Shown: positions 7,118 to 39,178 of the stretch, piece by piece
How the letters are laid out: each line of letters begins with the position of its first letter
Numbering within the stretch: the first letter of the stretch is position 1
Assembly (NCBI GenBank): GCA_964016885.1
Contig: OZ024743.1
Coordinates: 69,688,001-69,752,000 of the forward strand
DNA from: Eledone cirrhosa
Lineage: Eukaryota
Direction: 5' to 3'
Length of the DNA: 64,000 bases
The notes under the pieces: generated by a model
Database searches by the model: none
Told to the model about the DNA's origin: nothing
Seen by the model: only the letters and a program-made list of their open reading frames with translations
Made by a program: the position numbers and the translations under genes

Positions 7118-7254
7118 ATATTTATTAAAATAACAGACTAAAGTTTAAGCAAAGAACCGCTGCTTTCACTCTTAACGGGATCTTCTGAAGATCCCGTTAA
7201 GGGTGAAAGCAGCGATTCTTTGCTTAAACTTTAATCTGTTATTTTTATAAATAT
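7118..7254. mobile_element. Fold-back (palindromic) Penelope-like remnant centred on a hammerhead core, flanked by (TA)n
   Basis: ~68-bp near-perfect inverted arms around T7186. The right arm reads CTGAAGA-T-CCC-GTTAA-GGG-T-GAAA-GCAG...TTGC-TT (7185-7226). Confidence 0.75.
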
Positions 7255-7407
7255 ATATATAAATATATATATATATATATATATATATATATATATATAT
7301 ATATATATATATATATATATATATATATATATATATATATATATATTTATATATATATTTATATATATATATATATATATACATATAGAGAGAGAGAGAG
7401 GGAGGCG

Positions 7408-7524
7408 TATGAACTCGACCGTTACGCTAAGCGGTTTCGGCTTGTATGTTCAGCAAGCTTTTTTAAAGGGTCTGAATAGGCTTGCTGAACACACAAATCG
7501 AAACCACTTGGCGTCTCGTTCATA
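7408..7524. mobile_element. Degenerate inverted pair of hammerhead-like motifs
   Basis: Plus strand: CTGAATA-GGCTTG-ctgaacaca-CAAATC-GAAAC. Minus strand: GCTTG-ctgaacata-CAAGC-C-GAAA-CCG...CGG-TC. Outer TATGAAC/GTTCATA. Confidence 0.55.
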
Positions 7525-7727
7525 TCCCTTTATATTTTCACTGATTTTTTCCCCATGCATTGAGTACTCGTGTGTGACTGTGTGTATGTATATATATATG
7601 AATGTATGTATAGTATATTTGGCAATATACTGTATGTTTAATTAAACATATTTAGAAGACCATACGCTATCGGTTTTAAAGTAATGACTATGTCACTTAC
7701 TTCTTTTCGGCGAAAGAAGGGAGAGAA

Positions 7728-7764
7728 GCTGACAGTCTGTTTCACGCTGGCTGGCGAACATCAG
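7728..7764 (-). ncRNA. Degenerate hammerhead-like motif
   Basis: Minus strand CTGATGT-T-CGC-cagcca-GCG-T-GAAA-CAG-A-CTG-TC (A9 replaced by T). Confidence 0.4.
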
Positions 7765-7970
7765 ATCAACGCACCCCCTGCTTCCGCCCAAAAATTATAG
7801 AGGCTTGATTCTTATAGAATTCCAGTTATAATTAGGAACTGATTATACAGGGGGATTGCCGGTCCAGCAAAAATTAGGTATTAGGATTGGTGCCCTGCAA
7901 TAGCGATGTATACCATGAATGTGTATATATATATATATATATATATATATATATATATATATATATATAT

Positions 7971-8130
7971 AGGACATCTAATTCTGAACTGTCAGAACTA
8001 GCCGTCGAAACGGCCGGAGCTCAGCCGTCGGGGTTCTGACTCTTTTCCTATTACACACTCTACTACCCATAGTATCTGTACTCTGGTGCATTATGGTCCA
8101 CCTGGTTCCTTACCACACCTTCTTCGTTAT
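7971..8130 (+). mobile_element. Family-A short hammerhead-bearing element in (TA)n (non-palindromic copy)
   Basis: Homologous to 24540-24737 and 38990-39178: TAGCCGTC-GAAA-CGGC-cggagctca-GCCG-TC-GGGG...CCACCTGGTTCCTTACCACACCTTCTTCGT-(TA)n. Confidence 0.8.
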
Positions 8131-35431: not shown

Positions 35432-35713
35432 AAGGATTAGATTAAGACCTCGAGGGTTCTTCATACACAAAAAATTAGAATACACAGCAACCCCTCCCCC
35501 CAATTTTACATATCAAAGTTAGCTTGGCACAAGTAATTGGAATTGAAAAGTTATAAATACAGGTATTAAATTCAAAAATTCTAACCATACTAATACCAAA
35601 AAAAGCCCAACTGAGGGCACAAATAATTTGCTACGGCTATCGCTGGTGAACCCCACCCCACTGCAGGGGGCCCAAGGCATATGGGCTTTTCGTCTCTCAT
35701 TAAATGCGGCCCT
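35432..35713 (+). mobile_element. Non-autonomous DNA transposon (MITE) remnant, same family as 59820-60106
   Basis: Shared internal CTGAGGGCACAAATAA.TTG.TACGG and terminal TTAAAT.CGGCCCT. Confidence 0.7.
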
Positions 35714-35814
35714 ATCTGTTTGCCACCAACGTATCAGAAAACAATGTGAAATCAGTAAATATTTAGTAGCTGAAATTTATGGGAAAATTTACAAAATTTA
35801 CGAAAACCTCCCGA

Positions 35815-36090
35815 CTTACCACCATAGGCGCTGAGCTTGCTAGCTGCAGGTGTGAGCCTCGCGAAATGGAATGGCTCTTCCAGTGCATCTCCCTTACTAC
35901 TCTGCGGGGAAACGCCTTCTCCATTCCGTCCGCCGGGGCCGTGTGTGGGGGGAGGTGGCAGCAATTAGAGCCCCGTTTGCTCATAATAGAAAGAGATGGT
36001 GAGGGCGAGAGAGATGGAGGCGATGACAGTAGGAGTTCGGCTCTTCTGTGTTCGGACCTGGTGTGCAGCATCAGTTGTCTGTAAGGATGT
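35815..36090 (+). mobile_element. CRE-like (restriction-like endonuclease) non-LTR retrotransposon 3' remnant
   Basis: LTTIGAELASCRCEPREMEWLFQCISLTTLRGNAFSI matches the CRE-clade C-terminal 'L.QR.S.A..RGNA' motif. Confidence 0.65.
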
Positions 36091-36894
36091 AGTGATTCAT
36101 AATTACTTATGACAAGCCGACTCATTAATGTATATTGCAGGATTATCACTACCATATCAATGAAAGATTGTATCCAGTTGTGAAGACTATATATTTAGGA
36201 GGAGGTCAGTTTAACAGGGTCAGTAACGGGATGTATATTCGTTCTTGGCTTCTGCTTTCTGAGTTCAAACACTGCGAAAGGAGATTTGGTTTTTCATCTT
36301 TTCGATATCGATAATGAAATTACCAGCCCAGTGCTGGGGCAACACCTCTCCTTCCAGACTTCATCCTATGTGTTCTGCTTGATTAAAATAATGAGGGTCG
36401 AGAGAGAGCTTTTGTTTGTGATTGTGATTGCATGGGCACCTAAAACACTTACTGAAAGCATGGTATATTCTACGAAGTCGAACTTCGTTGCGAATGACAT
36501 CTCTACCTTTTTAAATTATATGTGTAATAAGTTGAACATGAAATTATGTATGTAGAGGTTATTATAACTTATTGTAGAGTACAGCTATATATATACTTCT
36601 TTTCTTCTTTTTCATTGCTCTTCGTTTTGTTGAGACGGCCCCTGGGGCTAACGTTTAAGATCCGTTTTCCAGATGAAGTTATTTAAGAAGCAACCGAAAG
36701 AAAATGATCCGTTAGGACTCCCAAGTGAGACCAACTTAGCTTGTGGATGTTATCTAACTATATTCCTTCTATGGATATTATAAGCCAGCATCATAGCTCC
36801 AATAATATTTTAATGTAATGAATTTAAGAATGATTAGGTCGAATATAACTTCGTATTTATTTTCAACATTTAACCTCGTGCTGCATTAAAATGA

Positions 36895-37085
36895 TTCTTT
36901 CCAGCACTGGTACCTGGCCAGCTATTGTTAAGAAGGGGTATGTCGATTTTATTGAATGCAGTACTTAACTGGTATGTTATTATCTCGGCCTCAGAAGGTG
37001 GAAAGCAAAGTTAACCTCCGTGTGATTTGAACTCAGAACTTAGAGAATCATAACTACGTATTGTGGTAGTGCCAAACCATCTCCT
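36895..37085 (-). mobile_element. tRNA-derived SINE
   Basis: CAGTACTTAACTGGTA...GAAAGCAAAGTTAACCTC...GATTTGAACTCAGA. Confidence 0.7.
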
Positions 37086-38989
37086 TCACGTTAAAATACA
37101 TAATAATAATATGTCGAATATGGAACGATACTGATATATGTCTGCTTTCACGTCAGAATGAAAACAAAACTGGTTTTAAATGTTAACTTTCCCTAAATTG
37201 AACATAAATCCCTCAACCTTTTTTGATTATATTTACAATTTTATTAAATATAATATATTTATTAGACACTTCTTTTCATATTCAAGCCAACTTTTAGCGC
37301 ACTTTCCATCATGTTAACTTATCATTCGTTCATCTTCGTTGATTGGCATTTATCTTCGCCCTTCTTCGTACAATTTCGCCTATCTTCGCCTGCCATCATT
37401 TATCGACTATTCAAGTTTTCGTTTTAATGTCAGCTAGAGGTTGCACAGTTAGCCAAATGGAATCTTGCCAAACTAACAAGCAAGTAAATTGAAAAAAGAT
37501 TCCCTAGAAAATACATGAAAGGGAAATAAGAAGAGTTAGAACTTATAATAGAAAGTAGCCATTTCGTCGTCCAAAAGCCATGTTGAATATCGAAATAACA
37601 TTGACAATACTTGAACAAGTCACGACACACGTACACATATAGATATATAACTACCTACCGCATACATACATACTTCTATACAAAAAAACGCTTTAACTCA
37701 CAGGTATCCACATAACCACAAAAGGCTTCCCTCTCTCTCTCTCTCTCTCTCTCTCTCTCTATATATATATATATATATATATATATATATATATATATAT
37801 ATATATATATATATATATATATATAAACACCTCACACACACTATATATATATATGTTTGTATTTATGTATATACAGATATATATATATATATATATATAT
37901 ATATATATATACATATACGCCCACACACACACCACACAGAGAATTCTATGCATATGTGGTATATACGCGTAGATGTGTGTATTTTAGGGTAGGGCATACA
38001 GCATGTTCCGTAAGAATAAATCGCTAGCTTCCTTTGGTGGACTTACTTTGTTGTTGCTGTATAGAAAAGATATTTAAAAGAAGCAGACAGTTCATCTTCC
38101 CCAAGGATGTTCCTTGTTATAGTGGATCAATCAGTTATATTAAGCATCAAAGACTAAAACTTCATCGGCGTTATCGATTATCTTGTTGCTTTTGCCATCT
38201 AACATACACCCATACCCACAACTCTACACACACATACACGCACACACGTTATATATATATATATATATATATATATATATATATATATATATATATATAT
38301 ATATATATATATATATATATATATATATATATATATATATATATATATATATATATATATATATATGTGTGTGTGTGTGTGTGTGTGTATGTGTGTATGT
38401 AAATATGTATATATGTGTGTGTGAAGGGTGTGTGCGTTTCTCTATATATGTATGTAGTATATGTGTATATATAAAAATGTATATATAAAAGTTTCTATCT
38501 ACCTATCTTTTCTTTTCTCCTCTCAACTCCTCTATTGTTAGGTTTTTGTCAGGTATCTTGCTTTATCTCTGTCTCTCTCTCTTTCTCTTACTCACCTTCT
38601 CCCCCACTCTCTCTCTCTCTCTCTCTCTTTCTCTCTCTCTATATATATATATTTATATATATATGCAATTCAATGTATTCATTACACTGTCTAGTATAAT
38701 ACAGAACATTCTTAACTCCTAATTCTTCCCCACTTCCATCACCATCACCATCATCATCAACAACAACATCACTACAACCTCGAACAATACCACAACCCAC
38801 ACTATCCACCATCACATATATTACTAACACCAAGAGGATGAGGGCATCAATGGCCATGATCGTGATCATGGGCTATTTCCTGATATATATATATATATAT
38901 ATATATATATATATATATATATATATATATATATATATATGTGTGTGTGTGTGTGTGTGTGTGTGTGTGTGTGTGTGTATATATATATA

Positions 38990-39178
38990 TAACGAAGGAA
39001 ATGTGGTAAGGAACCAGGTGGACTATAACGTACCAAAGTACTCAATACTTAGGGTAGTAGAGAGGGTAATAGGAACCAGTAAGACCCCGACGGCTGAGCT
39101 CAAGCCGTTTCGACGGCTAATTCGAATTAGCCGTCGAAACGGCTTGAGCTCAGCCGTCGGGGTCTTACTGGTTCCTAT
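38990..39178 (-). mobile_element. Family-A fold-back hammerhead-bearing element containing a perfect 110-bp palindrome
   Basis: 39069-39178 is a perfect, spacer-less palindrome centred on AATTC|GAATT; flanked by (TA)n. Confidence 0.9.

Follow-up and report, generated by a model that had tools for sequence, protein, structure and literature searches.

Head-to-head hairpin insertions of probable Penelope-like origin in Eledone cirrhosa and the position of their fold relative to a hammerhead-like ribozyme

Why should the turn-around point of unrelated palindromic insertions fall on a sequence resembling a hammerhead ribozyme? This question is raised by a 64,000-nucleotide (nt) stretch of Eledone cirrhosa DNA (contig OZ024743.1, positions 69,688,001 to 69,752,000, hereafter the window), in which an earlier note had described seven such fold-back elements and proposed that the ribozyme structure stalls reverse transcription. 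Based on the analyses reported here, all hairpins of the window are likely short head-to-head insertions from Penelope-like elements (PLEs), and in kind they are ordinary PLE insertion products. The positional coupling holds in three of six families, its likely cause being the position of the transcription start and not ribozyme folding. It is considered probable that the hairpins represent two-arm PLE insertions into (TA)n and that the fold of one family, termed family A, marks the capped 5' end of the RNA, predicted to lie inside loop II of the hammerhead.

End points of family A copies

Element positions are numbered from the first base of the ribozyme core (position 0). For family A, an unselected sample was obtained with an exact 74-nt pattern, consisting of the young tail followed by TA repeats, which yielded 4083 matches (reversed control: 0); 90 of the first 91 places, all located on C1, were evaluated. 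The 5'-most end was found between +39 and +50 in 65 copies, where approximately two stops were expected from the downstream stop rate, between 0 and +38 in none, beyond +50 in 14 and further upstream in 11. The commonest end is +43 (24 copies), located in hammerhead loop II. Furthermore, the outer end of the inverted piece is +104 in 57 of 64 cases, which fits in vitro results for PAc, where both target strands are extended and two internal start sites of the reverse transcriptase (RT) bound the tail (PMC11167929).

Long copies were represented by 18 loci picked for a long reading frame, 15 of which extend to the upstream ribozyme, while three end before it. None of these 15 stops in crossing the upstream ribozyme, as compared to 65 of 76 at the terminal copy (p = 1e-10). 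Judged by eye, partner arms of long copies go past the boundary in 15 of 16 cases, and one stops at +58.

In 59 copies, both arms are short. The two end within 3 nt of each other in 33 of these; in 16, it is the tail-less arm that extends beyond the other in the 5' direction by more than 3 nt, and in 10 the tailed arm. A snap-back copy of a tailed complementary DNA (cDNA) can be no longer than that cDNA, and the tail cannot come from a first cDNA lacking it; two separately primed cDNAs are therefore the simpler reading. Simple snap-back thus fails for these 16 copies, and a minor structure-led contribution is retained in family F (copies L105 and L114). Trimming of the hairpin tip is a possible explanation for unequal arms. 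In older copies, arm variants were concordant in 39 of 40 cases.

Several copies also contain sequence from further along the element. In L312, an inverted arm (+103 to +44) is followed by +46 to +1001 and then by +44 to +186, a layout indicating that the template began at approximately +44 and ran into the open reading frame (ORF). L364 and L293 jump from +46 and +43, respectively, to downstream element sequence, and the L365 junction likewise carries downstream sequence. Junction sequences mostly vary from copy to copy.

Position +43 is the A of a TTAGT motif, 29 nt after TATTTAAA. By consensus, we take the latter to be a TATA-like box and +43 to be an initiator-like A. The base preceding arms that end at +43 is G in 19 of 29 cases, as compared to 18 of 71 at neighbouring ends (one-sided Fisher test, p = 2e-4; family A only). 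The parent carries T before +43, and the extra G is untemplated. An extra G at full-length L1 junctions has been reported to reflect the cap (PMC11702581).

Hairpins of the window, their families and hammerhead-like cores

Window palindromes were identified by a seed-and-extend inverted-repeat scan with microsatellites masked. The 14 inverted diagonals obtained correspond to the seven elements described earlier (one split in three), an eighth palindrome, three microsatellites and one 22-bp pair. Arms of the seven are 86-100% identical, each element adjoins (TA)n or another dinucleotide run, and six families were indeed found, the elements at 24623 and 39076 both belonging to family A. In each of the seven, one arm carries an extra 3' tail that had previously been left out. 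The insertions are as follows:

7031..7256, minus strand: family B insertion; minus-strand tailed arm from core -2 to +156, tail-less inverted arm to +70; arms 7127-7185/7187-7245 (95%), axis 7186.
7408..7572, plus strand: family C insertion; parent core TTGAAAA (U3-A8 type); arms 7424-7458/7480-7514 (86%), axis ~7469, tailed arm to ~7572.
7972..8133, plus strand: third, older family A-related copy, missed earlier; an 11-nt inverted piece with its end at +43 precedes a direct arm from +48 to +187.
24539..24737, minus strand: family A insertion; the minus strand carries the tailed arm and the plus strand the tail-less one; arms 24623-24673/24683-24733 (94%), axis 24678 in hammerhead loop II.
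26066..26245, minus strand: family D insertion; arms 26130-26172/26200-26242 (88%), axis ~26186, truncation inside the CTGATGA core (+3).
29938..30430, plus strand: family E insertion; arms 29942-30150/30160-30365 in three segments (93-97%), axis 30155, core CTGACGA at 30148.
31201..31681, plus strand: eighth palindrome, family G, absent from the earlier list; arms 31201-31374/31508-31681 (98%), 133-nt spacer.
33600..33880, minus strand: family F insertion; arms 33711-33795/33792-33876 (94%), axis 33793.5 at AGCT, which immediately precedes the parent core CCGATGA (U4C type) on its 5' side.
38986..39178, minus strand: family A insertion; both arms begin at +49, the tailed one extending to ~+186 and the tail-less one to +104; perfect palindrome, arms 39076-39125/39122-39171 (100%), axis 39123.5.

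The sequence ATTGAGTAC recurs at 6918, 7559, 24596, 26108 and 39046, which places it in the tails of three families (A, C and D) and in one further element, and may represent a protein-binding site.

Regarding the origin of the insertions, arms were searched in the genome and longer copies were followed, by which Penelope-like ORFs were reached for families A, B and E. This bears out the PLE origin assumed in the earlier note, whose view of real, non-coding fold-back insertions targeted to (TA)n is likewise right. First-look candidates in the 3.0-Gb genome, which do not represent copy numbers, amounted to 1929 (A), 1512 (B), 65 (C), 260 (D), 1429 (E) and 1583 (F). The family A master is a 3531-nt unit with a 784-aa open frame (ATG at +274) present in tandem arrays. 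As judged by eye, this single frame combines RT and GIY-YIG endonuclease and shares its 3' end with the short copies, and its protein contains the motifs LRWR, SDKTG, CNCPDRSIC, CNLC and CKH, matching the set of the Hydra clade in PMC8557442. Pfam and PDB sequence searches with a fragment of this protein gave no match, a search for longer homologues gave two proteins (38% and 44%), and a DNA search with the young family A tail was empty. One locus (L273-L274, G000:C1:437.198-437.214 Mb) holds a tandem of four complete family A units, 99.95-100% identical, together with one inverted tailed arm, an arrangement that fits copying of circular or multimeric RNA. Family B carries RT and endonuclease fragments directly upstream, with linker, CxxC and CxH motifs as in family A; family E carries RT and GIY-YIG-like fragments directly upstream, of another type than A and B.

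Families C, D, F and G are likely PLEs as judged from shared anatomy, namely tail, fixed ends, hammerhead-like fold and (TA)n. Two features of endonuclease-positive (EN+) PLEs were likewise found, a partial tandem, the pseudo-long-terminal repeat (pLTR), combined with an inverted 5'-truncated copy, and a tail at one end only. Moreover, each of the families measured has two fixed outer ends: +104/+186 in A, +70/+156 in B, ~+75/+129 in D, ~+240/+306 in E and +88/+191 in F.

The earlier note had placed the axis at or near CTGAnGA, or in the stem II loop, of a hammerhead consensus in all seven elements. In each of them, the axis does lie in, or at the 5' edge of, the parent's hammerhead-like fold. 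The literal core occurs at the turn-around in only two (7185 and 30148), and CTGAAGA at 7185 is created by the junction of inverted and direct arm, the family B parent core being CAGAAGA. None of the seven passes the full hammerhead descriptor. Parent cores are TTGAGAA (A), CAGAAGA (B), TTGAAAA (C), CTGATGA (D), CTGACGA (E) and CCGATGA (F), corresponding to the U3-A8 type in A and C, U4A in B, U4C in F and the canonical type in D and E; U3-A8 (PMC4209133) and U4C (PMC3088659) are among natural hammerhead variants. In family A, TTGAGAA follows on stem I; next come stem II, which has a long loop, GAAA, stem III, whose loop is palindromic, TC and again stem I. The cleavage site is predicted at +84. 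The minimum-energy fold is the hammerhead three-way junction in families A and C and not in B, and in family E only core and stem II are clearly discernible. Folding energies of the tested families were not clearly better than those of shuffles (z from -0.08 to -1.88). The parents' folds represent putative type I hammerheads.

The hammerhead descriptor matched four other places of the window, at 29807, 31588, 26326 and 58838. Further repeats at 26262-26440 (minus), 29680-29910 (plus) and 58810-58838 (minus) contain whole canonical cores with no fold-back at the core, and the repeat at 29807 and the eighth palindrome are related. The matches listed in an Rfam scan of the window (150 of 417) included no hammerhead family and comprised only microsatellite and hairpin matches, and at four loci no match reached gathering score. 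MicroRNA matches below gathering score were obtained at 33740, 30112 and 24625. A perfect 22-bp inverted pair at 54739-54864 surrounds a minus-strand CTGATGA...GAAA motif and looks like the extended stem I of a whole hammerhead. Outside the window, the layout of the family B parent (L245:6978-7077) is hammerhead-like, has a U4A core and a stem I extended by 9 bp, and is fixed in a young family. Compensating changes distinguish stem II of family E from that of a related family (L044 and L021:698-730).

To compare families, the 5'-most end of every sampled copy was mapped on the parent, with window copies and duplicates removed; each sample comprised the 30 best matches per search and was not a random draw. 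The end lies in the ribozyme span in 21 of 24 family A copies (tail-only sample; 24 of 29 when five loci, two of them long, that also occur in the first sample are counted), in 26 of 29 of family D (24 of 29 if two further-reaching reference loci are moved out) and in 23 of 29 of family C, a count conditioned by a query starting at the core. A tail search of the genome for family C had the window copy as its sole match. Corresponding values are 9/28 in F, 5/28 in B, and 3/28 and 1/29 in E. Both inner ends of two-armed copies fall in the span in 18/19 and 23/24 (A), 15/18 (D), 3/7 (C), 4/12 (F), 2/11 (B), and 0/11 and 0/8 (E). The claim of a non-random axis position thus stands strongly for families A, C and D, weakly for F and B, and not for E. 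Moreover, the stop position varies by family: it is approximately +43 in A and approximately -9 in C and D. Several family D ends lie at the A of TTAGT (-9), family C ends cluster at -16 to -7, and five family B ends cluster at -9 to +3 around another TTAGT. Window copies of B, E and F are atypical of their own families; for family E this applies to the junction at the core of the 30155 element. The eighth palindrome is a counterexample, as its intact core (31588) lies 80 nt within one arm, approximately 150 nt off the axis.

A probable capped RNA end and competing explanations

In the proposed mechanism, a protein of the element would cut both (TA)n strands, and two cDNAs would be primed at two fixed internal sites of the RNA. 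These sites would lie near the 5' end of a transcript starting at +43, so that the cDNAs would run off the cap after approximately 61 and 143 nt, and their 3' ends would be linked by filler or by short microhomologies. Templates without a 5' end at +43 (read-through, multimeric or circular) would account for long and tandem copies. The axis would therefore lie near the hammerhead because the PLE promoter is located there. Families D and C likely follow the same mechanism with a start at approximately -9, as suggested by weaker evidence, and in B, F and E most templates or stops would lie further upstream, so that the coupling fades.

Several observations weigh against a capped start at +43, which is likely but deduced from DNA. 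The two arms of one insertion are not independent, and some of the G residues may belong to the partner arm; after removal of abutting arms by hand, G still precedes +43 in 15 of 20 cases. The boundary lies at the 3' strand of a weak hairpin formed within loop II (+39 to +47). No full-length copy starting at +43 occurs among the 15 long copies, which had been selected for a long reading frame, and a second template class is therefore needed. The cap-G comparison is feasible in family A only, D and C having too few clean junctions. Finally, arm concordance could also result if one arm is copied from the other, or if only a single master is active at any time. Two other ideas were dropped: ribozyme self-cleavage as the source of the boundary, its predicted cut being at +84 and not at +43, and an intron splitting the family A ribozyme, the 5' half having been located 50 nt upstream as a U3-A8 core.

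That RT stalls at a folded or protein-bound hammerhead, after which the cDNA snaps back, as the earlier note had it, is considered improbable. Such a stall would suit the axis being in or at the hammerhead in seven of eight window palindromes, the overlap of the family A boundary with a hairpin within loop II, and the joining of family F copies L105 and L114 through 6-7 nt of stem II self-complementarity; in addition, palindromic junctions have been interpreted as self-priming (PMC3846280). The enzyme would, however, have traversed stems I and III and the 3' strand of stem II before stopping, and the stop shifts by approximately 50 nt between families. None of the 15 long family A copies halts at the upstream ribozyme, the family A fold is no stabler than shuffles (z ~ -0.9), families E and B rarely or never have both ends in the ribozyme, and neither the longer tail-less arm in 16 of 59 copies nor the cap-like G bias at +43 is accounted for. 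The claim that ribozyme structure dictates the stop is thus unsupported. Slightly less credence is given to the absence of any specific coupling, where hammerheads 100-300 nt from the element end, common short truncations and the conspicuousness of tight palindromes would suffice. The end counts of B, E and largely F agree with it, as do the atypical window copies of these families and the overlooked eighth palindrome. For family A it is refuted by 65 stops within 12 nt, against ~2 expected, and none in the next 39 nt, and the pile-up near -9 in C and D would be left unexplained.

Less probable still, by a little, is an origin of the +43 end from RNA processing (an exonuclease halted by protein bound to the RNA, splicing or cleavage) or from short non-autonomous masters starting there. 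AG dinucleotides at +43/44 and +48/49 do follow a pyrimidine-rich run, and +84, where cleavage is predicted, is the end of a few arms (L018, L316). The AG is retained at the ends, however, no constant upstream exon is present, junctions mostly vary between copies, and an untemplated G suits a cap better than a cut end; moreover, L312, L364 and L365 contain element sequence from beyond the tail. Chimeric reads or assembly artefacts as the source of the palindromes can practically be dismissed. Only the element at 39076, with identical arms and no loop, would suit them, and the arms are mismatched in the other six of the seven elements, while outer ends are fixed per family. An 84-nt short-read contig is identical to 26155-26238 and covers 31 and 52 letters flanking the family D axis, in a run that is possibly the assembly's own sample. 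In raw reads on the family A parent, strand switches make up 14 of the 15 joints listed, and the upstream end of 12 of them is at +39 to +56; the reads derive from three other samples, all of one study, with several joints going back to the same read start. In run X1, the summed contig depth rises more than 10-fold across the family A boundary. A large read-end peak at L004:1501 was not used, since it coincides with an AATT site and probably reflects the restriction cut of the library.

In long terminal repeat (LTR) elements, minus-strand strong-stop DNA is tRNA-primed near the RNA 5' end and forms a short cDNA ending at the cap. A comparable, retrovirus-like strong-stop step in PLE replication is a tentative idea and rather doubtful. 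With transcription starting in loop II, a whole ribozyme would exist only at the far end of the RNA, and its cut at +84 would leave a 41-nt terminal repeat. Both cDNAs would start near the 5' end, reach the cap and have to jump to this repeat for long or tandem copies; where the jump fails, two strong-stop cDNAs would fuse to a hairpin. Jumps from the cap position to ORF or 3' untranslated sequence in L312, L364 and L293 speak for such a step, and against it, none of 15 long copies stops at the second boundary, which fits circular or read-through templates better. The likeness to LTR elements is one of working only, as the PLE cDNAs would be primed on nicked target DNA, be two in number and end as a genomic hairpin. 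If true, the step would provide a function for the PLE hammerhead and explain pLTR, tail and inverted copy together.

Relation to known systems and further observations

EN+ PLE units are known to comprise an inverted 5'-truncated copy and a tail and to be biased to (TA)n (Craig et al. 2021, PMC8557442). Hammerheads reside in pLTRs, with opposite-strand pairs 100-700 bp apart and a circular-template model (PMC4209133), and start sites within the pLTR have been described for Penelope and Chlamys (PMC2377424, PMC6765202, PMC8557442). The window hairpins share with EN+ units the head-to-head inverted copy, the junction palindrome, the one-end tail, the microsatellite target and a pLTR with putative hammerhead and promoter. 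Most family A insertions differ in comprising nothing but two short arms, whose shared inner end is sharp and bears an untemplated G, and the family A tails measure ~80 nt as compared to 30-40 bp. Arkhipova et al. (2013, PMC3846280) ascribed palindromes at the inverted junction to self-priming with an antisense template, whereas family A data favour two cDNAs from sense RNA. With the Hydra clade, family A shares the C-terminal endonuclease, RW[RK], DKT, the CxCX5C linker, CxxC and CxH, and (TA)n. This clade match is based on motifs, and the family A unit of 3.5 kb exceeds the clade's general size of <3 kb; moreover, its putative hammerhead is of the U3-A8 type with a long loop II and not canonical, and thousands of near-identical copies exist. 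Poseidon PAc (Frangieh et al. 2024, PMC11167929) shows the extension of both strands and the two RT starts proposed here, and likewise a ribozyme near the ORF start; the inner junction and run-off at a capped end are not analysed in the text covered.

Miniature inverted-repeat transposable elements (MITEs), which have inverted repeats, and non-LTR retrozymes, which have a type I hammerhead, are likewise short, non-coding and high-copy. A MITE or self-propagating fold-back element was rejected, since junctions mostly differ among copies; each hairpin junction is made anew and arms are unequal, so that these are not cut-and-paste units. No tandem monomers occur, and most family A copies are without half of the ribozyme. 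Annotators should note that such 200-bp hairpins can pass for MITEs or microRNA precursors.

A literature search, with subscription papers largely outside its coverage, found no paper linking the PLE inversion junction to a hammerhead or capped start, or placing a start site inside a PLE ribozyme. The origin of tandem and inverted PLE structures and the role of the hammerhead are named as open questions by Craig et al. (2021). The young family A, with at least 4083 identical tail ends, provides a record of thousands of natural reaction products. This record is suggestive of two cDNAs primed on the target and of an RNA whose capped start lies within the ribozyme, and it gives exact positions at +43, +84, +104 and +186.

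Further features were observed elsewhere in the window. At 1-2175 and 2589-6860 (minus), two near-identical copies of a long interspersed nuclear element (LINE) ORF with endonuclease and RT motifs are located, which by their motifs are presumably Tx1-like; the copy at 2589-6050 encodes 1153 aa and is preceded by a short proline-rich ORF. A piece of an RTE-like RT reading frame lies at 25030-25641 (plus). Finally, two tandem arrays follow each other at 13131-17788, the first with ~200 copies of an 18-bp unit and the second with 17.6 copies of a 56-bp unit; C and A skew is strong.

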